Part shown: positions 3,303 through 25,747 of the stretch, piece after piece
How positions within the stretch are numbered: the stretch's first letter is position 1
Layout of the letters: every line of letters starts with the position of its first letter
NCBI GenBank assembly: GCA_965218095.1
Contig: OZ244587.1
Span: forward strand, 416,001-480,000
Direction of reading: 5' to 3'
From: Candidatus Poribacteria bacterium
Lineage (GTDB): Bacteria > Poribacteria > WGA-4E > PCPOR2b
Length of the DNA: 64,000 bases
Program-made: the position numbers and the translations under genes
Notes under the pieces: generated by a model
What the model was told of the DNA's origin: nothing
Databases searched by the model: none
The model's input: only the letters and a program-made list of their open reading frames with translations

Positions 3303-3602
3303 CCTTAGTCATTTGAGAGGTAGGCATAAACATAGTTGACATAGTCAGCCAAGAAGGGGTTTATTGTTATCAGGGCAAAGAGAGTTCTTATGGCAAATAA
3401 GCCGATGTTGGCTGATTATGTTGCTCTTATTATACAACGATTTGAGCGGTTGATGCAACACCCTATTGAACAACAAAGCGTCAAACGGGGAAAACCGTGC
3501 CTTCAAAAGTCAGTGGTGTTGGCTGACGCATCACCCGGAGGTATTGCAATGGAATTTAGCCAGTTGTAATATCTCTAGAATCATGTTAAGAAATCGTGCA
3601 AC

Positions 3603-3635
3603 AGAAACCGAGTTTTTGGCAAAAACTCGGTTTCT
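3603..3635. repeat. Palindromic repeat family A, copy 1 (AGAAACCGAGTTTTT-N3-AAAAACTCGGTTTCT)
   Basis: 15-bp perfect inverted repeat; near-identical copy at 19199-19243 with similar upstream flank. Confidence 0.85.
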
Positions 3636-3737
3636 AAGCTGTCCTGTTATGCACCTATCGCCCCACCCCGATAAGATTGGGATTCAAAGCAACTGGGGCT
3701 AATGAGAGTAATACGTGGCGCGTAATACGTAAGACGA

Positions 3738-5909: not shown

Positions 5910-6824
5910 ATGAACCATCAAGATTTCCGAGAACCACACCCACCACGCGACTTGCCCTTCGAGATTAGGCCACTGTCGTCGGCGCTTGGGGCCGAAATTG
6001 TCGGGATTAGCTTGGACGAAGCAGCGAGCGAAGCGGTATTTCCCGCAGTCTACGAAGCATTCCTCGAATATCAACTCATCCTGTTCCGCGACATCGATCC
6101 CGATAGATCGGGATGCAAGCACTTGCCGCCAGCGCTCCAAGTCAAGTTCGCCCGAAATTTCGGCGAGGTGCAGGTCCACGTGATGAATCAGTATCACGGC
6201 TACGAGGACTATCCGGAGATCTACTTTCTCTCGAACCTCGACGAGAACGGGGTTCCGACTGGCGCACACCCGGATAAGGGCACACTGCACTGGCATACCG
6301 ACGGCTCCTGGATGCGCCGTACCGGCCTGGCGACCATGATGTACGCCGAAATCGTTCCAGCGGCGGGCGGAGAGACACATTTCTGCAACATGTACGGCGT
6401 ATATCACGGATTAAGTGCGGAGATGAAGAACCGGCTCAACGGACTCCGAGCGATCCACAATCTCGACTTCTCGCGCACCCGTCGACACGGCGAGGATCCA
6501 ATGACGGCGGAGCAGAAAGCGAAAGTACCGCCGGTTGACCATCCGATCGTCCGCACCCATCCGGAGACCAAGCGCAGGTGTATTTTTCTGGGCGACCATG
6601 CCGAATACGTGCAGGGCATGGACTACAACGAGGGCCGAGCGCTGATTGAAGAGATCAACCGTCAGATCACGGCAGAGCGCCTCATCTATCGTCACAAATG
6701 GAAGCCGCGGCAGGTTATCGTCTGGGACAACCGCTGCCTCCTGCACCGGGCGACAGTCTACGACACCGCCAGGGAACGCCGGATCATGCGGCGCTGTACG
6801 GTGCTCGGTGACGTGCCGTATTAA
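5910..6824 (+). CDS. TauD/TfdA family Fe(II)/2-oxoglutarate dioxygenase
   Basis: LGAEIVGI, WHTD, HPIVRTHPET, WDNRCLLHRA...RRCT motifs. Confidence 0.92.
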   Translation: MNHQDFREPHPPRDLPFEIRPLSSALGAEIVGISLDEAASEAVFPAVYEAFLEYQLILFRDIDPDRSGCKHLPPALQVKFARNFGEVQVHVMNQYHGYEDYPEIYFLSNLDENGVPTGAHPDKGTLHWHTDGSWMRRTGLATMMYAEIVPAAGGETHFCNMYGVYHGLSAEMKNRLNGLRAIHNLDFSRTRRHGEDPMTAEQKAKVPPVDHPIVRTHPETKRRCIFLGDHAEYVQGMDYNEGRALIEEINRQITAERLIYRHKWKPRQVIVWDNRCLLHRATVYDTARERRIMRRCTVLGDVPY

Positions 6825-6877
6825 CCACTGCGTTTGGCAGCAAAAAAAGGTAGAAGGAATAAGGAGGAGGAAATCAA

Positions 6878-8785
6878 ATGAATCCGTTAGAACTATCTGG
6901 AGTGAACATCAACCTTCGAGTGAACGAAGATTTAAGCCTGACCGTCCGGCGGCGTGACGGACGAGTCTTGTGGGAAACCTCGAAAACACACACTCCTATT
7001 CTTGTGATACGCAGCGGTGATGCCAAGCCACGCGAGATGCCCCTAGCAAATGTCACTACAAAGATCTCGCCGTTCGATGATGGTAAATATCGGGGCCATA
7101 CCGTTCTCTTGAGTGGCTTTGCGGGCGTTGATATCCTTCTGGAACTGATTTTCGCCATTGACACGACGGTAGATGAGCTTCTGGTTCAGGCGGCACAGGT
7201 CGGTGGCGCACACACCGCTGTGAGTCTTGAGCATTTCTACCGGTTTGAAAAACCAGTTTCCGATGGCGGGTATATGGTACTGCCTCACGGTTCAGGTTAC
7301 CTGATTCCCGCAGAATGCCCCGACGAACTTCCGGGAGAAGGTCACAAAGGCGGACTCATCGGTGGTCGGTGGACACTGCCAATGTTCGGGATAGTGCGCG
7401 GGAATGATGCAATATGTGCTATCGTCGAGACATGGTGGGATTGCGATGTCTCAGTAGAACATACGCCAGGCGACCAATCGACGCTGGATTTCCGGTGGCT
7501 CGGCAGCCTCGGGGCGCTGGCTTACCCACGCCGCTTCTTCCTGCGGTTTGCTCAGGGGATAGATTATGTGGAGATGGCGAAGAGCTATCGTAATTACGCC
7601 AGACAGCACGGCTTGTTACGCACGCTTGAAGAGAAGGCAGCCCTGACTCCCACTATCCGGCACGATATCGAAGCGATTCTTTTTCGATGGCCCGCATGGA
7701 ATCCCGATGAGGGACCGACCGTACTCGCAGAGATTCGAGCGTTGCGCGAGATGGGTTTTGGGGTGAAATTTTTCTTCCCCAAGTGGTCATCCGCCGGCTA
7801 TTCACCGGAGCACGGTACAGCCACGAGAGCGGACGCAAACTGGCAAGCCTATCTGCTTGAAAACCCCGTCCCGGGCGGGTGGGCGCCGCTGGTCGAGTTT
7901 GCGAATGCGGTGCGTCAACTCGGTTGTACAGTTCAAGGCTTTACCAGTCCGAGAACGCAGCGTTCCGAAGGACCGGCATTCGATGAAGACCGTTGGCCAC
8001 GAGATGCCAATGGCGAGCCGATACACGACCTGAGCGTTCACGATGCCGTCGATCGCATCAAGCGTGGCTTAGATAACATCGAAGCCCAGGGGCTTAAATA
8101 TGACGCTCTATACTACGACGGATATTCCGCGTATCACCCCTTGCCAGAGGATTTTTCACAGAAGGGTCGGATCACTCGACGAATGACTTGGGAGGCGCAA
8201 AATGCGTGCTTTGCCGAAACCCGACGTCGTGGCATCATGCCCGCTGCAGAGCTGGCTCGGTTCTGGTGTATACGGGACTGCGATTACTTTTTCTTTACCG
8301 ATTGGTCAAGCGATCGATTGTCCAACACTCCCGTTCAAGGTGCGCCTGCACCTGTGGGTGAACCCATCCCACTGTTCCAACTGGTCTTCCATGACTGCTA
8401 TTTAGCGGGTTTCTCCGGCGGCGGTTACGCCGTTTACACGCCGGGCTATGACTGGTGGGAAGACCGCACGCCGCGACTCTACGAACTGATGTTTGCCTCC
8501 GCACCCGCGTACAATTGGTTGCCAGAGGGTAACGTCCCCGTGCGAAATTTAAACAGCGCCGCTGCGCAACGATGTCTCGCCTGGCTAAAGCGTTGGAGCG
8601 CCTACTACCGGGCTATCGCCACCTCGGAAATGGTTTCCCACCAAGTCCTTTCGCCGGACCGCAAGCTACAGCGGATTGCGTTCGCTAATGGCGTGGTTGC
8701 AACGTTCAACATGGGAACAAACGAGTTCTGCGTGACAAACGTTGCTGGCTTCAGTGGGGAATGGGAGAAACCCCAGGTGTTCTGA
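6878..8785 (+). CDS. Putative glycoside hydrolase (DUF5696 / GH129-like)
   Basis: 635 aa, strong RBS AGGAGG; 'GYMVLPHGSGYLIP', 'DYVEMAKSYR', 'PIPLFQLVFHDC', 'MVSHQVL...F.NG' resemble that family. Confidence 0.6.
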   Translation: MNPLELSGVNINLRVNEDLSLTVRRRDGRVLWETSKTHTPILVIRSGDAKPREMPLANVTTKISPFDDGKYRGHTVLLSGFAGVDILLELIFAIDTTVDELLVQAAQVGGAHTAVSLEHFYRFEKPVSDGGYMVLPHGSGYLIPAECPDELPGEGHKGGLIGGRWTLPMFGIVRGNDAICAIVETWWDCDVSVEHTPGDQSTLDFRWLGSLGALAYPRRFFLRFAQGIDYVEMAKSYRNYARQHGLLRTLEEKAALTPTIRHDIEAILFRWPAWNPDEGPTVLAEIRALREMGFGVKFFFPKWSSAGYSPEHGTATRADANWQAYLLENPVPGGWAPLVEFANAVRQLGCTVQGFTSPRTQRSEGPAFDEDRWPRDANGEPIHDLSVHDAVDRIKRGLDNIEAQGLKYDALYYDGYSAYHPLPEDFSQKGRITRRMTWEAQNACFAETRRRGIMPAAELARFWCIRDCDYFFFTDWSSDRLSNTPVQGAPAPVGEPIPLFQLVFHDCYLAGFSGGGYAVYTPGYDWWEDRTPRLYELMFASAPAYNWLPEGNVPVRNLNSAAAQRCLAWLKRWSAYYRAIATSEMVSHQVLSPDRKLQRIAFANGVVATFNMGTNEFCVTNVAGFSGEWEKPQVF

Positions 8786-9024
8786 ATCTCTCTGCAAGGT
8801 TGCAGAAGTTATGATATTCAAGCCGAATCCGATTACCGAATCTTTTTGTTGTCATTTGTTTGCAATCGTACTATACCAGTCGTTGGCTGGAATCACTGAA
8901 TGCGCCGTGTCCATTGAGTCATCGAAGATTGCGAACCCCAGGGCGCCAGCATACCAAGCGGGGTAGATTTGCCCGATAATGCGGACGGGAATGAGCATGG
9001 CGCCAAGAGCAGCTCAGTAACTTT

Positions 9025-9999
9025 TCACGGGAATTGTGCGCCCTGAGTCTCCACATAGACTGCGTAGATGGACTGGCTGCCGGTCATGAATAGCTGGTTC
9101 CTCTTGACGCCGCCGAAGCACAGGTTGGAGCAGACCTCTGGGAGATGGATCTTGCCGATGAGGGCGCCGTCGGGCGCGAAGATATGCACGCCGTCGTATC
9201 CCTCGCCGCCCCAGCCCGCGCTCGCCCAAAGGTTGCCATCAATGTCACAACGAATTCCATCAGCGAATCCTGGCGCCATGTCGCAAAACGTCCTGCCGTT
9301 CACCAGACGGGCGTTATCTGCTACATCATAAACAAAGACGTGGCTGGGATGGTCCGGTTTGTGTGTGATACCGGTGTCGGAAATGTAGAGCTTGGAATAG
9401 TTAGGTGAGAAGCATAGACCGTTCGGTTTTTCAAGTCCGTCCGTCACCACCGTCGCCTCGCCTGTTTCCGGGTTGAGCCGATAGACATTGGTAGACAGCT
9501 CAAATTCACCCTTATGCCCCTCATAATTCATGAGGAGGCCATAGCCCGGATCTGTGAACCAGATATGTCCGTCTGGATGAACAACCACGTCATTCGGCGC
9601 GTTCAACCTCACCCCCTCGAAACTGTCGATCAGCACCATGATGCCCCCGTCATACTCGGTACGAGTCACCCGGCGCGTAGCGTGCTCACAGGTGATGAGC
9701 CGCCCCTGCCTGTCGCGGGTGTTGCCATTGCTGTTGTTAGACGGACTGCGGAAAACGCTAACTTCGCCGGTCTCCTCGACCCAGCGCATAATTCTGTTGT
9801 TCGGAATATCACTCCAGAGTAGATAGCGACCATCCCCGAACCAGACAGGTCCTTCCGCCCACCGCGTACCCGTGTACAATCGCTCGACCGCCGCGTTGCC
9901 GAGTCGGTATTTCTCGAAACGTGGGTCGACAACTTCGATGGCTGGATCCGGATACCTAACAACACCTTGATTCCAATCTCTGTCAATAGGTTTACCCAT
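9025..9999 (-). CDS. SMP-30/gluconolactonase/LRE family protein
   Basis: WAEGPVW, SDIPNN, LNAPNDV, PNGLCFSP, DGIRCD motifs. Confidence 0.92.
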   Translation of the reverse strand: MGKPIDRDWNQGVVRYPDPAIEVVDPRFEKYRLGNAAVERLYTGTRWAEGPVWFGDGRYLLWSDIPNNRIMRWVEETGEVSVFRSPSNNSNGNTRDRQGRLITCEHATRRVTRTEYDGGIMVLIDSFEGVRLNAPNDVVVHPDGHIWFTDPGYGLLMNYEGHKGEFELSTNVYRLNPETGEATVVTDGLEKPNGLCFSPNYSKLYISDTGITHKPDHPSHVFVYDVADNARLVNGRTFCDMAPGFADGIRCDIDGNLWASAGWGGEGYDGVHIFAPDGALIGKIHLPEVCSNLCFGGVKRNQLFMTGSQSIYAVYVETQGAQFP

Positions 10000-10018
10000 A
10001 CGATCCTGTTCTCCCCTA

Positions 10019-10633
10019 TCAGTATGCAGGAATTAATCCCCTGTTTTCAAGGAAGGCAACCACGTGCTCGGTAGACTCTGCGAGCGTTTGGTTCCCCGTA
10101 TTCACGACGATCTCGGGATTGATGGGCGCTTCGTAAAGGGCGCTGATTCCCGTGAACTCCTTGATTTTACCTGCCCGCGCCTTTTTGTACAACCCCTTCG
10201 TATCCCGTTCTTCGCATATCTCTAACGGGCACTCAACAAAAACTTCCACAAACCGCCCCTCGTCAAGCAGCGCCCGTGCTTTATCCCGATCCGCACGATA
10301 AGGCGAAATAAAGGCTGTCATGGCAATGACGCCGGCATCTGTAAACAACTTCGCAACCTCCCCAATGCGACGGATGTTCTCCTCCCGATCTTCAGGAGAA
10401 AAGCCGAGATTCTTATTCAAACTGTGACGGACGTTGTCGCCATCAAGGACATACGTGAGATGTCCACGCTGATGGAGCACATTTTCGACTTCATGGGCGA
10501 GTGTGGACTTACCGGAACCTGAAAGCCCTGTGAACCAGATTACGCTTCCTTTCTGATTGAGGAGCTTTTCTCTATTTTTCTGCGTAATATTGGCTTGGTG
10601 CCAGGTGATATTCGTTGCCTTCTGTTCTGTCAT
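10019..10633 (-). CDS. cysC: Adenylyl-sulfate kinase
   Basis: [33 protein letters not shown]. Confidence 0.96.
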
Positions 10634-12785: not shown

Positions 12786-15062
12786 ATGAATAATCAGATT
12801 GTTAATCGAAACACGTTTTTTGTCATTTTAGCTGCACTTATGTTACTTGCAGTTCAAAGTTTGAGTTATGGTCAAATGGTCTCACTCGATCCGGCATCAG
12901 TTGAGTCTCCAGCGGTTGGGGAGCAACTGACGGTCAGCATCAATATTACCGGTGGGGTCAATGTCTTCGGCTACGCGGTTAGCATCACTTTTGACCCAAC
13001 CGCGCTAAATTTCGTCGGTGTCGAACTTGGGGATTTTTTGCCCGGCGCGCTTGGCCCGCCAACGCTGGCAGCCATCGTTGGGGAGGGAGAGGTCAGTTAT
13101 AGTGCCACTTTTTTAGGGGCAGTTCCTGGGGTTGATGGAGATGGAAGGCTTGGGACAGCGATGTTTGAGGTGGTCGAAGTTAAAGGCTCCACTATCGAGC
13201 TTGATATCGAGCTTTCTGATCCGGATGGAAACCCAATAGTCGCAACAGTCGAAGATAGCATGGTTATTGGGCCTACGATGGTTGGGCCTACGGTTGAGGG
13301 AAAAGACCCCGCCACGGCGCCGCGTGCACTTATCGACCGATTCAGTGCCGACGCCGGCGCCATCTTCGTCCGCGATGATTCGGGCGCCCTTCCTGAAGCG
13401 GGCGAACCGATTGACTTCGATCAACAGCCCTTCATTACCCAGGGGTTGGGGCCCGACGGACAGGTTGTCCAGTACTACAATTTCGACGTACAGAGCGCCA
13501 CGCCGGCGCCTATCTTCGTCCTGTTCCGTGATGGAGAGGAACAACCTGTTGCTGGACAGATCTTCATTGTTGATGCGATTCCCGGTGACCCTGGGTACAG
13601 CGACTTTTGGAACGTTACAAAGGTAACTGTGCCGGCTGATTATGTCGCCAATACCGTGACTAGCTTGGACGAGATCAATGCGGAGGGCTTCGCGATGGAG
13701 GCAACCGCCAACATTGTCAACTGCCCAATTGTGCCAGAGGGTTCGACCGCCGCGCTACGCTTGGGGGGAGGCAATACCGGTTTGCACCTGGGCTGGTACC
13801 GTGGTCAGGTTGTCGCCTACTTCACCTTCGAGGAAAAGGCACTCGCCATGGACGCCAATGGCATGGTTCCGGTGTCCCCGATTTATGTTACCTTTAACAT
13901 CAACGTCGGTGAGGACGGAGGCGGACCACCGTCTGGCTTCGTCACGGAACCGGGGACTGAGCAGACGCACAACGTCGTCGCCACCATCCCGTCCGACACT
14001 GACTACTCGCCGCTATGGGCAGTTGCCATATACGACAACGCAAACTTCAACACTGTGAGAGATCTGGAGAGCGTGCAGGCGGCCAACATATTGCTGGCCG
14101 GCCCGAATGTTAACTGCCCGATCGTGTCAATTGAAGCGGGAGAAGAAGCGCAAGTCTTCTTCCTGGATCTTACATCTGGGCTAAATATGATTTCCTTGCC
14201 GCTCATGCCAGCTGTACCTTATACGGCAAGCCGTCTTGCGCAAGAAGTCGACGCAACGGTTGTGATCAGACTTGACCCTGATACACAGGAATTTGGCGGT
14301 TTTACGGTAGACTCCGGAGATGAAGGCTTCCCAATCGAGGGAGGACAGGGCTACATTGTCAACGTCTCGGATGCTCACACAGTTGCCTTCGTTGGAACAG
14401 CGTGGACTAACCGCCCCAGAGGCGTACCCAGCGCGCCGGGAGTCGATGTCCGAACAACGGCATGGGCCTTCATCTTGAGCGGAGATGTACAGAATGCAGA
14501 ACCTGGCATCAACTACACAGTCGTTGTGAAAAACCTCCGTACCGGTACCATTGCAACCGATGAGACTGCCGCCGATCGTGGGCGTGTCACCGCCGTTTGG
14601 GCGGATCTCAGCCGCAAAAGTGTGGTCGAAGCCGGTGATCCATTAGAGGTTACCTTGCTGGATGAATGGGGAAATATCGTCTCCGGTCCCTTCCATCGCC
14701 ACGTTGACGTTGAAGATATCCGGAAGGCTTACCTGAGCATACCGCTGATTGTCGGTGATGTGCATCCAACGGAAACCCTGCTTGCCCAAAACTTCCCCAA
14801 TCCGTTCAATCCAGAAACGTGGATTCCGTACCAGATCATGGAGTCAGCGGAGATCACCATTCAGATCTATGATCCGTCTGGTCGCCTTGTGCGAAGGCTT
14901 GATCTTGGGCTGAAGTCTGCTGGCTTCTATACGACGCGGTCCACAGCAGCGTATTGGGATGGCCGTAACAATGAGGGTGAGCGGGTTGCCTCCGGGGTCT
15001 ACTTCTACACCTTGCAGACCAGGGATTTCTCCGCAACTCGTAAGATGCTGATTGCTAAATAG
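12786..15062 (+). CDS. Secreted multidomain protein: cohesin domain, two 'PGD..YS..W.V...VNCP' repeats, FlgD-Ig/T9SS-like C-terminus
   Basis: Signal peptide; 'VGEQLTVSINI..G.NV.GY...FDPTAL...GDG.L....FEV' (cohesin); duplicated internal domain; 'LAQNFPNPFNPETWIPYQ...YWDGRN..GERVASGVYFY...RKMLI.K'. Confidence 0.85.
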   Translation: MNNQIVNRNTFFVILAALMLLAVQSLSYGQMVSLDPASVESPAVGEQLTVSINITGGVNVFGYAVSITFDPTALNFVGVELGDFLPGALGPPTLAAIVGEGEVSYSATFLGAVPGVDGDGRLGTAMFEVVEVKGSTIELDIELSDPDGNPIVATVEDSMVIGPTMVGPTVEGKDPATAPRALIDRFSADAGAIFVRDDSGALPEAGEPIDFDQQPFITQGLGPDGQVVQYYNFDVQSATPAPIFVLFRDGEEQPVAGQIFIVDAIPGDPGYSDFWNVTKVTVPADYVANTVTSLDEINAEGFAMEATANIVNCPIVPEGSTAALRLGGGNTGLHLGWYRGQVVAYFTFEEKALAMDANGMVPVSPIYVTFNINVGEDGGGPPSGFVTEPGTEQTHNVVATIPSDTDYSPLWAVAIYDNANFNTVRDLESVQAANILLAGPNVNCPIVSIEAGEEAQVFFLDLTSGLNMISLPLMPAVPYTASRLAQEVDATVVIRLDPDTQEFGGFTVDSGDEGFPIEGGQGYIVNVSDAHTVAFVGTAWTNRPRGVPSAPGVDVRTTAWAFILSGDVQNAEPGINYTVVVKNLRTGTIATDETAADRGRVTAVWADLSRKSVVEAGDPLEVTLLDEWGNIVSGPFHRHVDVEDIRKAYLSIPLIVGDVHPTETLLAQNFPNPFNPETWIPYQIMESAEITIQIYDPSGRLVRRLDLGLKSAGFYTTRSTAAYWDGRNNEGERVASGVYFYTLQTRDFSATRKMLIAK

Positions 15063-15128
15063 AACGATGGACGATGGACTAGGCGTGTTACACTCCATAC
15101 GCATCAATTTAAGGCAGAGGCGAACGCT

Positions 15129-15202
15129 GGTTGAGTAGCGATGTGTATCGAAACCAAGTGAGCGATACGACGCTCGGTCTTGATACGCTACGCTACTTAA
15201 TC
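15129..15202. repeat. Nested hairpin REP-like element (GGTTGAGTAGCG..GTATCGA..ACC / GGT..TTGATAC..CGCTACTTAATC)
   Basis: Multi-segment inverted repeat in an intergenic gap. Confidence 0.6.
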
Positions 15203-15265
15203 TGCACGTCAAGGCACACCATAATTAGTATGAGTTGTTACATTCCTTGTCCCATTATCACTTCG

Positions 15266-15310
15266 ACGCCCCGGCCGAACTGTCATCGCGCAGTTGTCGG
15301 GGCGTTTTTT
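15266..15310 (+). terminator. Rho-independent terminator or attenuator
   Basis: ACGCCCCGGC...GTCGGGGCGT stem followed by a T-tract. Confidence 0.7.
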
Positions 15311-15338
15311 GTGGATTTCAACACATTTTGGAGGATTT

Positions 15339-16082
15339 ATGTACAGTCAATTCAAATCTCTCAGCGCGTTTGTCACATTCAGTGCAATTCTCGGAATATT
15401 ACTCGTCACCAATACAAGTATCGTATCTCAAGCAGACGCCCAGGTTGTGTTTACCGAAGTCGATTACCACAATGATCTGATTGAAATCGTCAACATGGGT
15501 ACATCTGACGTAGACATTAGCGGTTGGCAACTCTGTTCACGTTTTACCTATCCATTCGTTTCAGACTTAACCGTTGAGACAGGAAGTACGACCCTTGAGC
15601 CGGGTGGCATCCTCGTCCTCTCTGGCTTTGCGTTACAGGATGCCGCAGATCTCGGGCTTTACAATTCCGGCAATTTTGGCAGTCCGGTGGCAATGCAGTC
15701 CTTTGTCGAGTGGGGCGGGAGCGAAATTGGGCGTGAAAGCGTCGCTGTCAGCAAAGGGATTTGGAATACCGGAGAGTTTGTTCCACCGGTCCCGGACGGC
15801 CACTCCATCGAGTATGACGGCGTAGGAATCTCTGCGGGGGCGTGGTTTGATCAAGCGACTCCTAACTTCGGCGCTTTTGGGGAAGAAATGGAAATCCCAC
15901 CTCCGTCCACACCCTGGGATGTCAATGGTGATAAGGTAGTAAACATCTTTGATCTCGTCGAGGTGGCTGGCCAGTTTGGGCAGTCCGGCGATGGCCTTGC
16001 CGCAGATGTCAACGGCAATGGCACAGTGGACATCTTTGATCTCGTGGTCGTTGCCGCTCGTTTTGGAGAGACAATCCCGTAA
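15339..16082 (+). CDS. Secreted lamin-tail-domain (LTD) protein with C-terminal type I dockerin
   Basis: RBS GGAGG; signal peptide; 'VVFTEV...IEIVN.G...VDISGWQL' (LTD); twin Ca-binding loops DVNGDKVVNIFDL and DVNGNGTVDIFDL. Confidence 0.85.
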   Translation: MYSQFKSLSAFVTFSAILGILLVTNTSIVSQADAQVVFTEVDYHNDLIEIVNMGTSDVDISGWQLCSRFTYPFVSDLTVETGSTTLEPGGILVLSGFALQDAADLGLYNSGNFGSPVAMQSFVEWGGSEIGRESVAVSKGIWNTGEFVPPVPDGHSIEYDGVGISAGAWFDQATPNFGAFGEEMEIPPPSTPWDVNGDKVVNIFDLVEVAGQFGQSGDGLAADVNGNGTVDIFDLVVVAARFGETIP

Positions 16083-18467: not shown

Positions 18468-18620
<153 letters not shown>

Positions 18621-18650
18621 TCATACCCACCCACAGGGGTCGAGGAAAAG

Positions 18651-19115
18651 TCAAATCCCGTTCATTTGACACTCAGAACAATATCCCAGAATTTCATTCC
18701 TGTATTTCACTGGCTTGAACTTGTGCGTTTTACAAACGGCTTCTTGGAGCGCATCAATCTCCGGTTTTTTGAACTCAATAATTTTTCCACATCGTAGGCA
18801 GATTAGGTGGGCATGTTGTTGTTGGAGTGAGCGGAGATGTTCATAGTGAGAATGCTTTTGTGCGTCGATTACTTCAGTCAGCAGTCCGCTTTGAACAAGG
18901 AGGGGCAACGTCCGATAGATTGTCGCCCGAGAAACCGTATACCCGTTTTGGCGCATGCGCATCAAAAGGTCCTCCGCTCGAAAATGATCATCGTAAGCGA
19001 AGGCCTGTTCAAGAATGGTGCGCCGCTCCGAGGTGAGCCGCAATCCATTGCCTTGAAGGTATTTGCTAAACCTTTCAACAATTTGTGGTTGAATCGGTTG
19101 ATTGCTTTTTTGCAT
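18651..19115 (-). CDS. fur: Fur family transcriptional regulator
   Basis: GLRLTSER, SRATIYRTL, HAHLICLRCGKIIEF, GYCSEC; RBS GGAGG before ATG 19115. Confidence 0.9.
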   Translation of the reverse strand: MQKSNQPIQPQIVERFSKYLQGNGLRLTSERRTILEQAFAYDDHFRAEDLLMRMRQNGYTVSRATIYRTLPLLVQSGLLTEVIDAQKHSHYEHLRSLQQQHAHLICLRCGKIIEFKKPEIDALQEAVCKTHKFKPVKYRNEILGYCSECQMNGI

Positions 19116-19198
19116 GGTAAGGACCTCCCTACTCATTGGTTGATGCGTATGTCAACGTTATGTTTGTGGTTTCATTTTTGGCTCATATTAAGAAAGCG

Positions 19199-19243
19199 TG
19201 CGACAGAAACCGAGTTTTTCCAAAAAACTCGGTTTCTGTCGCA
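19199..19243. repeat. Palindromic repeat family A, copy 2
   Basis: TGCGACAGAAACCGAGTTTTT-CCA-AAAAACTCGGTTTCTGTCGCA perfect hairpin. Confidence 0.88.
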
Positions 19244-19309
19244 TTTTGCACTTTCCTTTTACATGAGCCTCATTTTTTTAGTTCCCATCGTAGGAATCGT
19301 CATTCCCCA

Positions 19310-19738
19310 CTAAGGACACATATCTTTACGCAGCAGGCGTGAATGGCTTTTTGTCTGGTACACTCTGCCGCCGACCAAATTGCGATTCTTAAAGTCCTCG
19401 TGCAATGTTTTGTCGTTGGAAACCAATACTTTTACATTTGCGATAATGGCTAATGCGATAATATGCGGGTCATCTGATCTAATTGCATCTGTTCGGTTTA
19501 GTTCATTCTCTTTTGCTTCCACCCCTTGGGGCAGTATCTCTTTAAGTTGCCCAGATTGTCTTAATAGCTTTATCAAATTGGTAACTCCCCCTCTTTCCCA
19601 TTCTTCTTCAAATTTCTTCGTATTGGAGTAAGCTATTTTGCCATTCTTTTTCCGCAACCAATTCCACACAGGCTCCATATTCTCATTGGCTGGCTCCCTA
19701 AATTCACCAAACATATTGGCATCCAAAACAATACACAT
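19310..19738 (-). CDS. PIN-domain nuclease
   Basis: IVLDAN, EEE, SDDPHIIALA and LVSNDK supply the acidic PIN active-site residues. Confidence 0.8.
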   Translation of the reverse strand: MCIVLDANMFGEFREPANENMEPVWNWLRKKNGKIAYSNTKKFEEEWERGGVTNLIKLLRQSGQLKEILPQGVEAKENELNRTDAIRSDDPHIIALAIIANVKVLVSNDKTLHEDFKNRNLVGGRVYQTKSHSRLLRKDMCP

Positions 19739-19740
19739 AA

Positions 19741-21036
19741 CTAGTCCTCAAACCCCATAAGCTGGCGGTATTCTGTCATGAAAAATTCTCTGTAATGCGG
19801 CGGCGCCCCCTCCATATTACCCATCTTATCAAACCTGATATTATGCACCTTGACAACATTCCCCTTTGGCTCCAGATATATCAGCGACACATCCTCGGGG
19901 CGGATATTGCCTTTTCTGATTTCAACGCGCGCCCGGTCAATCATATAGTCGCTGTGCGTTTCAACGATAAACGCCCGATTACCCTCGCTTGCCAATGTTG
20001 CTAGCAGAGAAGATAGTTCTGCCTGCGCCCTCGGGTGCAGATGGACTTCAGGCTGTTGTAATAGGAAGAAAGGCATCTCCATCAGAGGTTGACCAGAAAT
20101 AGGCGGATCTAAAATATCCACTAAAATCGGCAGAATTTGACTGACGCCGTAGCCGACATCAATGATATTGGAGTTCGGCCCCCTCACCTTGACTTTCAGT
20201 TGGAATGGATTACCCATAGACCCACCAAAGTTTCTAACATCTATGTTCTGAAACAGGCCCGAGCTCTTACCAAATTGAACCAACACCGTTTTCAATGCTT
20301 CCCACCTCTTTTTTTGGGTCGCTTGTGTCTGCATTAACCGCATCGGCACATCGCTCCCTTCAGGATCATAAAATTCCCGCGTCGGATCATACGTCCGTTT
20401 CGGGCGTGAGCGAATCGGTGCGGTACTAAAGACGGATAGGCTTTCCCGCATTTTCCACCATGGAGGTATCGCACGCTCGCGCTTTTCCAAATAGTTCGCT
20501 AAGGCTTTTTCGCCCTCAGATCGCCCTTCTCCTCTAAGATGCCCTAAAAGGAAGAGAGGGGGGCTAGTATCCAAAATATCAGAATTTACATATATACAAT
20601 ACTGATTTTGTTCTTCATCAAAGGAAGCTAAACGCATGTAAGGTAGTTTATCGTCGGCACTTAACACGATTTCGCTGTCAGTGAATGTCAGTGTTACTGA
20701 CTTAGCAGTAGGCTCAATTCCTCCCTTTTTTTTAACGAATTGGACTGTCCATTCAACATCTCCATTCTCGGTTCTAAAAGTAAACCCAAGCGTAAACGTC
20801 TTCTCTTTTTTTCTGCTGTTTCTGACAATATCCTTAAAGGTTCCCATTGAGTAAGGGTCTGTATTAAAATCTATTCTCTCACCCCCCAAATAATTGGCTA
20901 ACATCTGAAAACATGCCAACGCTGTGGTCTTGCCGGTACTGTTTTCTCCAACCAAAAACGTCAGAGGCCGAATCTCAAACTCCTGGCGTTCCGCAAAACA
21001 GCGTACCTCCTCCATTGTGAATTGGGTGATGTTCAT
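19741..21036 (-). CDS. ABC-type AAA ATPase (AAA_15/AAA_21-like with DUF3696-like C-terminus)
   Basis: Walker A GENSTGKT, signature DVGYGVSQ, Walker B LLQQPEVHLHP, H-loop VETHS. Confidence 0.88.
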   Translation of the reverse strand: MNITQFTMEEVRCFAERQEFEIRPLTFLVGENSTGKTTALACFQMLANYLGGERIDFNTDPYSMGTFKDIVRNSRKKEKTFTLGFTFRTENGDVEWTVQFVKKKGGIEPTAKSVTLTFTDSEIVLSADDKLPYMRLASFDEEQNQYCIYVNSDILDTSPPLFLLGHLRGEGRSEGEKALANYLEKRERAIPPWWKMRESLSVFSTAPIRSRPKRTYDPTREFYDPEGSDVPMRLMQTQATQKKRWEALKTVLVQFGKSSGLFQNIDVRNFGGSMGNPFQLKVKVRGPNSNIIDVGYGVSQILPILVDILDPPISGQPLMEMPFFLLQQPEVHLHPRAQAELSSLLATLASEGNRAFIVETHSDYMIDRARVEIRKGNIRPEDVSLIYLEPKGNVVKVHNIRFDKMGNMEGAPPHYREFFMTEYRQLMGFED

Positions 21037-22430
21037 CCGGTTACCTCCTGCGTCTCATTTTCCAGATAGTCAATCGCGGTTTGTTCGTCCTCCTCAATGG
21101 CTATCTCCACCGCTCGCTTGGCACATTCCAGTAGACGCTTGGACTGCTTTCGCAAGTTAAAGGATTCAACGACTTTCTGCTGGATTTGGATTTGTTTTTC
21201 TTCTGCGATTATTGGTAAGATAACCTTGCCAAATTCATCTTTATTGATTGCCGTAAGGATTGTACCGCTACATCCTTTCTTAAGTTGTAATTGTCCAATT
21301 ATACTTTTCAATAGTACAAGCAAAGTCTCGGAATTGAATGCCTGTGAGTTGACAACATGGAATCCGGTAGAGCAAAGAGCTTGATCGTATTCCTTATCTA
21401 TTAAGGCGATACTGTCCAATGAACCCTCTATAGATGAAACAATAACATCTCCCATTGCCACCTGACGCCTTGCCCTACTTGGCAAATCCTGACCTTGTTC
21501 TATCATGCAATCGGCGATCCCCCCATCCCCTACGATATTGGCAAGTTCAATGTATTTGTACTCGGTTTTATCCGCCAGTCTGAAGTTCTTATCTTTTAAG
21601 TCAACCAAACTCCCCAGCGTATCCCATCCGCACGAATGGTTTTTGATGGCGTAGGCTATTTCTTCGTATTTCGGCTGGAAGTAATCTGCGTCGATACGTT
21701 CTGCTCGTTCCATGTCGGAATAGTTCTTGACAAAGGTCAGCCGATGTTTCGGTTGCCAGTCAGTAAGCCCGAGTTCGGAGAGGAGGAGGGTTTGGGCTTG
21801 GGTGTATCTTATTTTTGATAATTGAGTTAAATCGTGAGAACGCAGGTAAGTTTTTTCGATTTCAATCTGAATGTCTCTCCAAACGGGCATCGGGATTTGA
21901 TATAAAAAATACGGTGCAATTTCAGGTTGTGAGCCCCCATACATACCTTTATCTATCAATTTTCTGCCATATTTGGTATTTAAAAAAACGGTTATAAAGA
22001 ACGGGTTCAAGTTGCCACTTTTAACGATAAAGGTATGAGACGATGCTATAGTCTGTCTCTTTTCTAGATAGATAGCGCATTGACCAAAGTTCGCGCCGGA
22101 TCGAGTTATCAAAATGTCTTTGTAATGTAAGGTGTTATCTTTTAGACGCTCTACATCCTCTTCTGAGATATAAACTGGATTGGTTGTCAGGTCAATGGAT
22201 AGGGGGCGAACGTTTTGCGCTCTCAAAAATAGAACGCCATCGTCCACATAATTTCGCTTTATCTCTTTGGGATGCTTTATCTCAACCTGAAAATCAATTA
22301 ACCTGTGCGAACTAATTTCCTCAAGCTGTTTTTGGACTTTTAAATAATCAGGGCGAAAAAATTCAGCATCAAACCGCCTAGAATCTGATGCTTCCACTAC
22401 CGATTGATAATTAACAATTGAATATTGCAT
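21033..22430 (-). CDS. Restriction-modification specificity subunit (HsdS-like, two TRDs)
   Basis: Two halves starting RFDAEFF and RIDADYFQP; DILITRSG / GDVIVS...STGF; conserved helical spacers. Confidence 0.85.
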   Translation of the reverse strand: MQYSIVNYQSVVEASDSRRFDAEFFRPDYLKVQKQLEEISSHRLIDFQVEIKHPKEIKRNYVDDGVLFLRAQNVRPLSIDLTTNPVYISEEDVERLKDNTLHYKDILITRSGANFGQCAIYLEKRQTIASSHTFIVKSGNLNPFFITVFLNTKYGRKLIDKGMYGGSQPEIAPYFLYQIPMPVWRDIQIEIEKTYLRSHDLTQLSKIRYTQAQTLLLSELGLTDWQPKHRLTFVKNYSDMERAERIDADYFQPKYEEIAYAIKNHSCGWDTLGSLVDLKDKNFRLADKTEYKYIELANIVGDGGIADCMIEQGQDLPSRARRQVAMGDVIVSSIEGSLDSIALIDKEYDQALCSTGFHVVNSQAFNSETLLVLLKSIIGQLQLKKGCSGTILTAINKDEFGKVILPIIAEEKQIQIQQKVVESFNLRKQSKRLLECAKRAVEIAIEEDEQTAIDYLENETQEVTG

Positions 22431-22484
22431 TATTCATCCTTTGCGATATCCGTTTGGCCGGATCACCTTCTCCAATTCCCAGTT

Positions 22485-22858
22485 GTAGGGAACGCAGCTC
22501 TGCGTTCCCTGCGATGATTACAATACCGTGTATGTGATTTGGCATCACGACAAATTCATCTAACGCCGTGTTGTGAAAATGTTCGGGGATAGCCCGCCAA
22601 CAATCCGCTACAATTTGTCCAATATCGCTTAACTTCATTCGCGCCTTTTCAATTTCCCCCAAAGAATTAACCCTGTCTTGGGTGCAAATTGTCACAAGAT
22701 AATATCCCGCCCGGGAATAATCGTAATTCTGTAACCGATTCGGTTTTCTATTGCGGTTATTCATGATTCGTGCGGATTATAGGGACAACCCCTCTGAACG
22801 GTCGATATTTTGTTGTTGTGTGCAATAGTAGTAGGGAACGCGGATCTGCGTTCCCTAC
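22485..22858 (-). mobile_element. Truncated REP-associated tyrosine transposase (RAYT, Y1/HUH) with two REP palindromes
   Basis: ORF from 22764: RKPNRLQNYDYS..GYY.VTICT...DEFVVMPNHIHGI; C-terminal half missing; REPs GTAGGGAACGC..GCGTTCCCT(G/A)C at 22485-22512 and 22831-22858. Confidence 0.85.
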
Positions 22859-22934
22859 GATAATTACAATAAGGTTTAGACGATGTCACCATGCATTCCA
22901 AGATTAGATGACTGAATCTCTGCGACAGAATTAT

Positions 22935-24890
22935 TTAAACATAGTTCTTCCCAAAACTGAGTCCTTCGCCCTTTGCCCACTCAATAAAGGCTTCAGCTAT
23001 GCTATGCAAATCGTGGTCAACGATCGGATGGCCATTTTTATCCAATCTATACTGTCCGCTGCCGTTTTGGGCATAGACATAATCGCCGGAGTTGTCCTTG
23101 CCGCCCTTCTCACTCATGGCAAAGAAAATAGGGTAGTCATCTTCCTTGCGACAAAGCGGTCCCTTGTCTGGATCATTGTTCCACTTTTGCAGGAACAGGA
23201 CGCTGGTTTTGGTGCCGGTGTGCGGTTTGAAAGTGTTGCCATGTAAACCAATCACCGCCAAGATACGCCCCTGCTCGGCGATAAAATCGCGGATGTACTT
23301 GTCGGATGTGTTGTTGAATCTGCCCTGCGGTAGCACAATCGCCATACGCCCACCGGGTTTCAGAAAGTCCAGATTGCGCTCAATAAACAGAATGTCGCGT
23401 CCAACTTCACTTTTCACCTTTCCTTTTGCGTTAAAGCTGAGTTCGTATTGATGCAGCAAAGGGCCCTCCTTGATTTTACCAGCAAAGGGCGGATTTGCCA
23501 TCAGGATATCAAAGTTAAACAGTTTGTTTTCATCTTTTTCCGCTCTCAGTTTTTCCAGTCGTTTAAAACCCTTGATGTAGGTGCTGATCCAATTTTTATC
23601 GAGCTCGGTCTGGTCGCCCCAGCGTTCAAAATCGAGCGTGTTTAGGTGTAAAACGTTGGCTTCTCCGTCGCCTGCAATCAGGTTCAATGTCCTAGCAACC
23701 CGGACCGTTTTCTCATCAAAGTCAATGCCGAATACTTTTAAGATATTCCTTTTCTCCTTGGCTGATATTTCTGTATTACCGAACAAGCGTATCCTTTTGA
23801 AGATGGTATGTACAGGAAAGCCACAACTGCCGGCGGCGGTATCAATCATATATTCACCGGGCTGAGGATTTAACATCCGAACACACATTTCAATTACATG
23901 ACGCGGCGTAAAATACTGCCCCTTTTCTCCTTTGGCGGATTTGTTGACCAGATATTCAAAGGCTTCATCTATGATCTGCAGGTCGGAGTTGAACAGTTTG
24001 ATATCCTGCAAGCTAGACACACAGACAGACAGATGGCTGTCGGAAAGTTTAAAAATTTCATCTTCGGGAAAAACGCCTGACCATTGATCTTTCGCTTCGT
24101 TGAAAAGACGCTGAATCTTATTCTTCAGTTTCGTGTTGGTCTGCCCGGTATTTCGGAACTCCATGATTCTCGGTTTGTCGTGCTGGCTCAGAAATTCATC
24201 ATAGAGCTTGGTAAATATGAGTTTGAAAACCTCCTCAAAAACATCCACCCCGGCATTTGCCAGCACTTCATCCTCCATTTCCAAAATGATTTCCTTCAGG
24301 GATTTCCGCCCCTTGGTGAGCTTATCCGTCCGGATAAGGTCTTCCACGGTGAAACGTTCTTCGCGGATATCTTCAATGGCTTGGCTCACATTGGGAATGT
24401 CAGTAATCTCTTCAAAGTAATTCGGGTCTTTGCGGTTGTAATGGGAAATTTGTTCGCCGTTTGTCCAGACGCCGATCGGTGCGCCGGTGGCATTGCAGTA
24501 GGAACGTAGCTGATTTTTACCGTCCTTGAGTTTGGGCTTTTTCAACTCCACAATAATATACTCGATATCCGGGCGATCTTTGTCGAAGATAACGATATCG
24601 GTTTTTTTCGTTTGCCTGCCGAAGTTGACCGGATGTTCAAAGGCTAAACGCCTTTTGGGGTAGTGGTAATGATTAATCAGCTTTGCCGCATACAGTTGGC
24701 GGACTATCTCTTCAGGCTTTAGTTGAATCTGCTTATCCCGAACGATGCAGTTAACAAACGGGGTTTCTTTGCCTCTGTATGGTTTGATACAGATCCTATC
24801 GCGTAGCTTGTTAATTTCATCTTCCGTAAATAAGGTGAGATGATAATCGGTGTCTTTGAGTATTGTTTGGATGATGTCGGGTTGTGTCAT
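22935..24890 (-). CDS. Fused restriction endonuclease (HsdR_N-type PD-(D/E)xK) and N6-adenine methyltransferase
   Basis: PEEIVRQ, TDIVI...IVELK...QL.SY, TNG; GQYFTPR, DTAAGSCGF, NPPF. Confidence 0.92.
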   Translation of the reverse strand: MTQPDIIQTILKDTDYHLTLFTEDEINKLRDRICIKPYRGKETPFVNCIVRDKQIQLKPEEIVRQLYAAKLINHYHYPKRRLAFEHPVNFGRQTKKTDIVIFDKDRPDIEYIIVELKKPKLKDGKNQLRSYCNATGAPIGVWTNGEQISHYNRKDPNYFEEITDIPNVSQAIEDIREERFTVEDLIRTDKLTKGRKSLKEIILEMEDEVLANAGVDVFEEVFKLIFTKLYDEFLSQHDKPRIMEFRNTGQTNTKLKNKIQRLFNEAKDQWSGVFPEDEIFKLSDSHLSVCVSSLQDIKLFNSDLQIIDEAFEYLVNKSAKGEKGQYFTPRHVIEMCVRMLNPQPGEYMIDTAAGSCGFPVHTIFKRIRLFGNTEISAKEKRNILKVFGIDFDEKTVRVARTLNLIAGDGEANVLHLNTLDFERWGDQTELDKNWISTYIKGFKRLEKLRAEKDENKLFNFDILMANPPFAGKIKEGPLLHQYELSFNAKGKVKSEVGRDILFIERNLDFLKPGGRMAIVLPQGRFNNTSDKYIRDFIAEQGRILAVIGLHGNTFKPHTGTKTSVLFLQKWNNDPDKGPLCRKEDDYPIFFAMSEKGGKDNSGDYVYAQNGSGQYRLDKNGHPIVDHDLHSIAEAFIEWAKGEGLSFGKNYV

Positions 24891-24959
24891 AACTCCTCCG
24901 TAATCTGCCGTATGATTTACGGCAAGGCATATTTAATTTTTCTGGTCGTTCAAAACGCT

Positions 24960-25517
24960 TCAGGTTTTCCGCTCCATCGCAAGCAGTTTCCGTTTCCAAT
25001 GCAACCCGCCCGTATAACCGCCGAGCCCGCCATCGCTACGGACAACACGATGACACGGAACGATGATCGGCAGGGGGTTAGCGCCCATTGCCCCGCCAAC
25101 AGCTCGCGCTGCGTTCGGTTGGCCAATCTCCTGCGCAATCCAACTATAGCTTCGGACCTGACCGTAAGGAATCCGAAGGGCAATCTCCCAAACGCGCCGC
25201 TGAAACGGCGTTCCGGCATCTAAATCGAGTTCGAGTGCAAAATCAATCTGCACTCCATCGAAGTATCGTGTCAGCAGTGCTTCCGCTTTCGATAGTTCCG
25301 GATCGAGGGCGTTGCATGTAACATTTTCGCGTTTTTCTATGCCATTTGGGGTGAGCGTATGTAAACCCCGTTTACCGTGCGAACCCCTGAGGATGCGATC
25401 TGCTGCAGCCGCGTCCGTCGGTGCGCCAAAAGTAACGCGAGCAATCCCTCGATCCGATTTCGCAATACCGACCCAGCCGAACCCCGATTTGAAACAGGTA
25501 TAATTCATGGCGGTCAT
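24960..25517 (-). CDS. ogt: Methylated-DNA-protein-cysteine methyltransferase
   Basis: GTPFQRRVW, IPYG, ARAVG, NP.PIIVPCHRV. Confidence 0.93.
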   Translation of the reverse strand: MTAMNYTCFKSGFGWVGIAKSDRGIARVTFGAPTDAAAADRILRGSHGKRGLHTLTPNGIEKRENVTCNALDPELSKAEALLTRYFDGVQIDFALELDLDAGTPFQRRVWEIALRIPYGQVRSYSWIAQEIGQPNAARAVGGAMGANPLPIIVPCHRVVRSDGGLGGYTGGLHWKRKLLAMERKT

Positions 25518-25747
25518 ACAACCGTCCCAAGTTGGGCATTTTCGCCTGTTGGAATCGATTTTCCTTCAACTTCAAGTATCACCCACTCACGACTGAGGAG
25601 TTCAAATAGACTCATGATTTCCTCTCTCTGCGTGAGACTATCGAGCGGAATCTCAAAGGTGAGTGTCGCAAACTCCTCTTTCTGTACATCGCCCTCTTTG
25701 TTGAATTTCATGGGGGTAATCTGAATCTTTTTCAACTTTGCATCCAT
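25514..25747 (-). CDS. Small hypothetical protein
   Basis: Strong RBS AAGGAGG; ATGA overlap with ogt. Confidence 0.7.
   Translation of the reverse strand: MDAKLKKIQITPMKFNKEGDVQKEEFATLTFEIPLDSLTQREEIMSLFELLSREWVILEVEGKSIPTGENAQLGTVV

Follow-up and report, generated by a model that had tools for sequence, protein, structure and literature searches.

ATP-binding cassette (ABC) ATPases that control an RNA-directed nuclease are known from PARIS (AriA–AriB) and from PrrC, both of which are associated with anti-restriction sensing; PrrC consists of one fused polypeptide and is found within Type Ic hsd operons. In a 64,000-nucleotide stretch of a Candidatus Poribacteria genome (GenBank assembly GCA_965218095.1, contig OZ244587.1, positions 416,001 to 480,000; hereafter the window), we analyzed an operon that encodes a restriction-modification (RM) subunit (M), a specificity (S) subunit, an ABC ATPase and a PIN protein. 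The nearest characterized architecture for the last two genes is HEC-03, the Hma-embedded candidate 3 of Payne et al., composed of an ABC ATPase and a VapC-like PIN protein and found embedded in Hma (helicase–methylase–ATPase) systems; according to the accessible part of the preprint, HEC-03 gave E. coli protection against phages, for which neither gene was dispensable (10.1101/2024.01.29.577857). Menshen offers a second point of comparison: in the accessible part of its report, NsnB is an AAA_15 ATPase whose Walker B motif is non-canonical and whose C-terminal DUF3696 tail would, by prediction, clamp onto the inactive PIN-like N-domain of NsnC (PMC12065111). In MADS, the portion of the report available to us describes an active 2:2 ATPase–nuclease complex formed by MAD3 and MAD4 (PMC13662399).

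We read the window locus, with a probability of roughly 60%, as two adjacent, functionally separable immunity modules: a Type IIB-like RM system and an autonomous ABC ATPase–PIN system of the HEC-03 or Menshen NsnB–NsnC kind. This reading draws on gene structure, domain identities, motif conservation, the strict linkage of ATPase and PIN, and the facultative linkage of the RM genes.

Linkage of the ATPase–PIN pair across related loci

To collect related loci, a PIN-profile search was employed, which yielded 222 confirmed genome loci; the counts below refer to the best 80 of these 222 (numbered with the prefix L). The 80 loci belong to Poribacteria, Latescibacterota, Caldilineaceae and two Bacteroidota metagenome-assembled genomes, and the ATPase–PIN pair is common in sponge-symbiont bacteria. 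An ATPase homolog is located directly upstream of the PIN gene, on the same strand, in 80/80 loci. Of these ATPases, 77 are full-length and one runs into a contig end; the remaining two are disrupted, with an insertion in L032 and a truncation in L039.

The RM genes show a different distribution. The M family of the window was detected in five of the 80 loci and a full S gene in six; counting 3' remnants of S, of which that in L034 is weak, members of the M/S families precede the ATPase in 12 loci in all, and a Type IIG enzyme lies near the pair in three further ones. Five loci (L006, L008, L034, L063, L066) share the synteny of the window, with DUF5916, Ogt, the pair, Fur and GFO, and in all five M is absent and only the last residues of S are left, while the ATPase–PIN pair is intact. 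A FastTree phylogeny of the 77 ATPases groups the RM-linked loci into a single clade of 12 rows with an SH-like support of 97, and L014, on a long branch, comes in addition; the RM-linkage labels on this tree were assigned by us, and relatives share labels. RM linkage is facultative, a trait of one ATPase subclade in which RM decays while the pair persists. From this distribution, the pair appears to be an autonomous two-gene unit.

One representative of each of 31 recurrent neighbor clusters was scanned for annotation. The other recurrent annotated neighbors are of housekeeping type (VWA/BatA, sulfatase, cupin, TPP enzyme, Fur, GFO oxidoreductase, ABC permease), and several small upstream open reading frames (ORFs) had no match in Pfam or PADLOC.

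Two further observations concern the pairs themselves. The similarity of ATPase and PIN to the window proteins is discordant in L063, L066 and L070 (PIN at 8001-8543), where the PIN is lengthened to 176-182 aa; the L063 ATPase, for example, is 74% identical to that of the window and its PIN only 47%. Such discordance suggests either faster evolution of PIN or exchange of the PIN partner. In L055, two ATPase–PIN pairs lie in tandem (6679-10233), with proteins 58-65% and 49-56% identical to those of the window.

Features of the ABC ATPase

The ATPase matches the Pfam families AAA_21, AAA_15 and AAA_23. Its best match in PADLOC is NsnB (E 1.2e-41), in two stretches, the better of which aligns residues 278-420 with positions 199-336 of 345. 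The match to PDC-M55A (1.1e-38) runs end to end (1-415 against 1-398 of 421 positions), that to HEC-03B (1.3e-22) covers residues 238-415 only, and the AriA models, at about 1e-21, overlap the generic AAA_15/AAA_21 profiles.

The Walker A motif (GENSTGKT) is invariant in the family. The Walker B motif reads LLQQPE, with Q327 present in 77/77 and Q328 in 76/77 family members; since the two glutamines are nearly universal, the atypical motif is a family trait and not a sign of decay. The protein ends in a C-terminal tail composed of a β-hairpin and a helix. An AlphaFold2 (AF2) model (pLDDT 77.5, the predicted score of the local distance difference test) retrieved Rad50, SMC and PtuA heads in Foldseek at E 3e-12 to 4e-10, as expected of an ABC fold. 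By its profile matches, the ATPase belongs to the NsnB/HEC-03 clade of ABC proteins, which control separate nucleases in defense systems.

The PIN protein and its family

The 142-aa PIN protein itself has no direct match in Pfam; among 22 aligned homologs, 13 match Pfam PIN (PF01850) and seven match DUF4411. Its AF2 model (pLDDT 78) has VapC proteins as best Foldseek matches (probability ~1.0), and comparison with VapC by VIA gave Z 9.3 and a root-mean-square deviation of 3.3 over 123 residues, with 37 chains at Z≥8. The acidic residues D6, E46, D90, D109 and D115 are invariant in all 22 homologs. Judging from the model and these residues, the small protein is a stand-alone PIN with a VapC-like fold and an intact active site. 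Cys2 and the C-terminal Cys141-Pro142 are likewise invariant in the 22 homologs; the model is of low confidence at both ends.

The PIN profile defines a large family: 1653 cluster representatives were recovered at E≤1e-3 and, at the stricter E≤1e-10, 847; the best 150 are nearly all 130-160 aa long, i.e., stand-alone PINs. Within the phylum of the window, the profile was found in 107 of 176 genomes and in 86 of the 133 high-quality ones, some matches being fragments with internal stops. A tblastn search of 72,556 plasmid records with the PIN gave no match, and a scan of viral contigs, limited to a sequence pattern, gave nine pattern matches, none of which was confirmed as a relative.

Comparison with HEC-03

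HEC-03 and the window pair share a two-gene layout in which an ABC ATPase is followed by a small VapC-like PIN, without VapB, and which is conserved as a pair. Both occur beside or inside modification-based defense loci and also alone. The same genome carries a canonical HEC-03-type pair elsewhere (L081 236-2007, about 4898193-4899964), with a 421-aa ATPase bearing DUF3696 and a 168-aa PIN. Its ATPase is homologous to that of the window (24% identity, E 1e-24 over residues 3-415 by BLASTP), and both lack the canonical Walker B Asp-Glu (LLQQPE in the window, LILEHPE in L081).

The PADLOC HEC-03 PIN model had no match among the 22 homologs of the window PIN at E≤5, and a scan of the genome with this model (PDLC04147) at E≤10 found the L081 locus alone and nothing at the window locus. 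Alignment of the window PIN profile with the HEC-03-type PIN of the genome by hhalign reached a probability of 2.3%, a weak test, as the template was a single sequence. In PADLOC-DB the letter 'A' stands for the HEC-03 PIN model and 'B' for its ATPase model; the preprint uses the two letters the other way round. On the ATPase side, Pfam DUF3696 is called in the HEC-03-type paralog but not in the window ATPase, which scores better against NsnB and PDC-M55A. The initial annotation did not recognize the gene combination as a named system; the two-gene architecture of ABC ATPase and PIN is nevertheless that of HEC-03, as the accessible part of the preprint describes it (10.1101/2024.01.29.577857). 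The pair is, by these comparisons, probably a diverged relative of HEC-03, with an architecture already described and a sequence family that falls outside the HEC-03 PIN model.

The two genes of L081 are followed by an unannotated ORF with a length of at least 476 aa, and about 4 kb downstream there is an HsdR-like gene (4903844-4905991). A third paralogous pair, L092 1477-3328 (about 2661937-2663788), consists of a 430-aa ATPase with the Walker B motif VYLEQPE and, 1 nt further on, a 185-aa protein whose N-terminal and S-x-D motifs are PIN-like; this pair adjoins a TPR protein with an HTH-like N-terminus.

Comparison with Menshen, PDC-M55, PARIS, PrrC and VapBC

With Menshen, the window ATPase shares, besides the PADLOC match to NsnB, a non-canonical Walker B motif, a C-terminal tail and a G-x-G-type signature (GYGVSQ) that replaces SGG; its downstream partner also starts with a PIN fold, as NsnC does. 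In contrast to Menshen, there is no NsnA (ParB-DUF262): the gene upstream is an S subunit or unrelated, DUF262 had no match in the operon or its flanks, and the annotated recurrent upstream neighbors in related loci are unrelated to NsnA. The window PIN keeps D-E-D-D, whereas the major Menshen PIN-like families lack those residues, and it is a single-domain protein without a C-terminal effector domain. The NsnC models matched neither the window PIN nor its 22 homologs.

For PDC-M55, the end-to-end match of the ATPase to PDC-M55A is the point in common. PDC-M55B (315 positions) had no match in the genome at E≤10; as 14 control genomes were also silent, this is a weak negative. PARIS and PrrC resemble the window pair in joining an ABC ATPase to an RNA-directed nuclease, which is a prediction in the case of the window. 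However, the window locus has no AriB (DUF4435/Toprim) partner, and the one fused protein of PrrC corresponds to two genes here. The pair differs from VapBC in that a 431-aa ATPase gene, 2 nt upstream of PIN, occupies the place of a small VapB antitoxin gene. We file the pair as one that may work like HEC-03 and NsnB–NsnC while being, by the models, no detectable member of HEC-03, Menshen, PDC-M55 or MADS.

The restriction-modification module

The RM subunit is an N-terminal PD-(D/E)xK nuclease fused to a gamma-class N6-adenine methyltransferase (NPPF). Its domains are HSDR_N_2 at residues 59-166 (Pfam, 2e-27) and N6_Mtase at residues 306-578 (9e-33), and it matches the PADLOC model MTase_I PDLC03034 over its full length (3e-283). 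D98, E115-L-K117, QLRSY, the S-adenosylmethionine (AdoMet) motif and NPPF are kept in 5/5 locus homologs. The closest solved relative is RM.BsaXI (Type IIB), at 3e-19 and for the methyltransferase part only (residues 216-571). The S subunit had no match in Pfam; it matches PADLOC Specificity_I (1e-32, positions 13-458 of 459) and contains two target recognition domains (TRDs). S homologs are 35-60% identical overall and 63-94% in the last 30-45 residues, as against 71-74% for M homologs, which we read as the usual TRD turnover. No helicase or translocase R gene was found in the operon, full-length HsdR genes being present only at distant sites of the genome.

The module thus resembles the BcgI/BsaXI (Type IIB) enzymes in its nuclease–methyltransferase fusion and its separate two-TRD HsdS-like subunit without a translocase subunit. 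It differs in that its methyltransferase falls under the PADLOC Type I models (MTase_I) and in that a RAYT/REP remnant parts M from S. By domain composition, the architecture is of the Type IIB-like kind, and double-sided cleavage would be an extrapolation from it.

Locus layout and flanking regions

On the minus strand, the ORF list gives the order M, S, ATPase, PIN from 5' to 3', with all four genes co-oriented. Coordinates are collected in Table 1.

Table 1. Features of the operon and its surroundings, in window coordinates
Feature	Coordinates	Strand	Remarks
RM subunit gene	22935-24890	-	651 aa
S subunit gene	21033-22430	-	465 aa
ABC ATPase gene	19741-21036	-	431 aa
PIN gene	19310-19738	-	142 aa
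RAYT-like (IS200/Y1-type) transposase remnant, truncated	22411-22764	-	NCBIfam REP_Tyr_transpos 6e-6, under its cut-off
REP-like palindrome GGGAACGCAG-N4-GCGTTCCC, upstream copy	22834-22855	none	2 sites in window vs 0 expected
REP-like palindrome GGGAACGCAG-N4-GCGTTCCC, second copy	22488-22509	none	inside 3' part of RAYT-like ORF
Terminator-like hairpin, 20-bp stem	19199-19243	-	67 nt past PIN stop (terminator-like scan)

The S stop and the ATPase start share ATGA at 21036-21033, a 4-nt overlap, and the ribosome-binding site of the ATPase, AGGAGG at 21044-21049, lies within the 3' end of the S gene, 7 nt upstream of the ATPase start. At the next junction, the ATPase stop TAG is followed by tt and the PIN start ATG. 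The ATGA overlap also occurs with a sulfatase gene in eight loci (L003, L004, L005, L009, L046, L072, L074 and, by context, L047); it is no peculiarity of S, since the ATPase start ATGA itself supplies the TGA. Evolved translational coupling to S was considered as an explanation of the overlap and rejected, the same overlap being found with unrelated upstream genes.

Downstream of PIN lie the hairpin, the Fur gene, BacA and a GFO-type oxidoreductase; upstream of the RM subunit gene are Ogt and a DUF5916 protein. With such neighbors on both sides, the flanks of the window locus do not form a defense island. No VapB-like gene is located beside PIN, the ATPase being upstream and the hairpin and Fur downstream. 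A promoter scan gave 11 sites against 11.6 expected, and no promoter is therefore claimed; one 10/12 match at 22805-22776 lies upstream of the RAYT-like ORF. Elsewhere in the window, two proteins are encoded at 12786-16082, one of 758 aa (cohesin, FlgD-Ig and Por-secretion-tail domains) and one of 262 aa (lamin-tail and dockerin domains).

Much of the initial annotation agrees with these results. Its coordinates for the four co-oriented genes, the overlap at 21033-21036 and the 2-nt gap between ATPase and PIN are correct; the nuclease, NPPF and PIN acidic motifs it called intact are kept throughout the M and PIN homologs; and the Walker B motif it found atypical is indeed so, family-wide. Its remark on the lack of an adjacent antitoxin holds, as does its assignment of the small protein to PIN, by fold and by the Pfam matches of the homologs. 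The comparison of the RM genes with Type IIB enzymes is likewise upheld by the HSDR_N_2–N6_Mtase fusion, the two-TRD S subunit, the lack of an operon helicase and the relationship to RM.BsaXI.

A mobile-element remnant and dispersed repeats

The 505-nt spacer between M and S, which the initial annotation had passed over, is occupied by a RAYT-like ORF of 117 aa. Its homology to full-length copies is limited to approximately the first 100 residues. Homologs of 183 aa and 165 aa are present in L001 and L070, and the L001 copy matches Pfam Y1_Tnp (1e-5). The RAYT-like ORF of the window is bracketed by a pair of copies of the palindrome GGGAACGCAG-N4-GCGTTCCC, which has 14 sites in the genome (its reversed control has none); one of the genomic sites precedes the canonical HEC-03 pair by about 0.9 kb. 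We read the spacer as a probable decayed RAYT/REP mobile-element remnant inserted between M and S.

The hairpin downstream of PIN is a member of a dispersed repeat family, with a second copy at 3600-3638 and 25 half-site matches genome-wide (control 0). Contigs of four metagenome runs were compared with positions 18500-25700; they are fragments from many strains, none of which spans the operon. The summed depth of the hairpin in these contigs reaches into the thousands and tens of thousands, and its borders show numerous loose ends.

A possible mechanism and the alternatives

We infer a defense function for the pair, ATPase–PIN binding, a trigger and an RNA target, and the mechanism is drawn by analogy with the predicted NsnB–NsnC complex and the structures of Septu and PARIS, as treated in the accessible part of the Menshen report (PMC12065111). 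The ATPases would form dimers or tetramers and, with Walker A intact, bind ATP. With the invariant QQ replacing Asp-Glu in Walker B, hydrolysis is predicted to be slow or absent, and ATP binding rather than turnover would then matter. The C-terminal tails of the ATPase could hold or regulate PIN, with one PIN per dimer. A phage-derived cue, sensed by variable inserts of the ATPase, would change the state of the ATPase, and the changed state would free or activate PIN, leading to RNA cleavage and an aborted infection. The initial annotation had likewise cast the two proteins as sensor and effector, triggered by inhibition of the RM system. The sensor–effector idea remains reasonable; the RM-guarding part of the proposal finds no support across the loci, with RM genes or their remnants in 12/80.

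Complex modeling, proposed in the initial annotation as a check, gave a pass, but a weak one. Two ATPases and one PIN together scored 0.36 (best of three controls, 0.00), with at least 91% contact agreement between runs and a partner pLDDT of at least 76. The mark applied to this score was reached by 58/80 solved complexes and 2/110 mismatched pairs; at scores of 0.60 or lower, seven of the 80 solved complexes passed, as did both passing mismatches.

Several points weigh against an autonomous defense system of the HEC-03 or Menshen kind. The support that modeling lends to ATPase–PIN contact is weak. The window PIN fails the HEC-03 PIN model, both for its 22 homologs and in the genome scan, and hhalign did not align it with the HEC-03-type PIN. 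The co-occurrence of homologs suggested as a further check in the initial annotation is complete for ATPase and PIN, but its counterpart, a neighborhood of defense genes, is not the rule: most of the 80 loci lie among housekeeping genes and not in defense islands. Retention in 107/176 genomes, partly in synteny, is uncommonly high for fast-turnover defense genes, and an addiction module could likewise account for it. Finally, the subfamily may already be listed in the HEC/PDC or Menshen supplementary tables.

It is less likely that the pair constitutes a distinct defense family, in which a hydrolysis-impaired ABC ATPase would act as an ATP-loaded clamp on an active stand-alone PIN RNase. Such a family would represent an 'active-PIN' state related to the ancestor of NsnB–NsnC, a module whose PIN would later have turned into an inactive adaptor for other effectors, and would have spread horizontally among unrelated sponge-symbiont phyla and been retained in most species. 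An addiction module seems unlikely: here PIN would be a VapC-type toxin and the ATPase an unconventional antitoxin or chaperone, together stabilizing the chromosomal region without a dedicated anti-phage role. The VapC-like fold with its intact active site, the tightly spaced two-gene operon, the breadth of the PIN profile in the phylum, the mostly housekeeping flanks and the fragments with internal stops in several genomes are all consistent with it. However, the gene order and the 431-aa ABC ATPase partner are unlike VapBC, toxin–antitoxin and defense roles are not mutually exclusive, and HEC-03 is, in the accessible part of the preprint, a validated phage defense that needs both genes (10.1101/2024.01.29.577857).

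Two explanations bind the pair to the RM genes. We consider it improbable that all four genes form an integrated MADS-type system, with the pair as a working part of a modification-dependent restriction complex as MAD3–MAD4 is within MADS. The layouts are alike, in that each is a co-oriented cluster joining a nuclease–methyltransferase fusion and its S subunit to an ABC ATPase with a small nuclease, and the active 2:2 complex of MAD3 and MAD4 in the accessible part of the MADS report (PMC13662399) fits such a role. PADLOC also matches M, S and the ATPase to mad2, mad5 and mad3. Yet the corresponding NCBIfam matches are partial and far under the curated cut-offs (M to MAD2, 294 bits against 720; S to MAD5, 139 against 400; ATPase to MAD3, 25 against 420). 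The nuclease is a PIN here and DUF4276/Toprim in MADS, the remaining MADS genes are absent from the operon, and most loci carry the pair without any RM. Least probable of all is the RM guard, in which the pair would monitor the Type IIB-like system and cleave RNA when a phage anti-restriction protein inhibits it, as PrrC does for Type Ic. It is favored by the co-orientation of the genes and the 4-nt overlap of S and ATPase, by the S gene or S remnant that always precedes the ATPase in the clade of the window pair, and by the proposal, in the accessible part of the HEC-03 preprint, that embedded systems serve as a back-up of the host system (10.1101/2024.01.29.577857). This guard role had been put forward in the initial annotation and is not borne out by the loci: the pair is linked in 80/80, no trace of the window RM is found in 68 of them, and M has been lost in seven of the 12 loci of the RM-linked clade (L014 included) with the pair intact, syntenic relatives of the window among them. 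The overlap itself recurs with the sulfatase gene.

Significance

If the pair is an active defense, as in the favored reading of an autonomous HEC-03- or NsnB–NsnC-like system, the validated ABC ATPase–PIN architecture of HEC-03 would extend to a family missed by PADLOC's PIN model, and to a large one, with 1653 PIN cluster representatives and a presence in 107/176 genomes of the phylum. With its invariant QQ, the Walker B motif makes it possible to ask, in a naturally occurring case, whether nuclease release in such systems is gated by ATP binding and not by hydrolysis. The syntenic relatives constitute a natural experiment in which an embedded defense module outlives the restriction system it came with, and the persistence of the pair after the loss of RM bears on the reading of 'embedded' defense genes generally.

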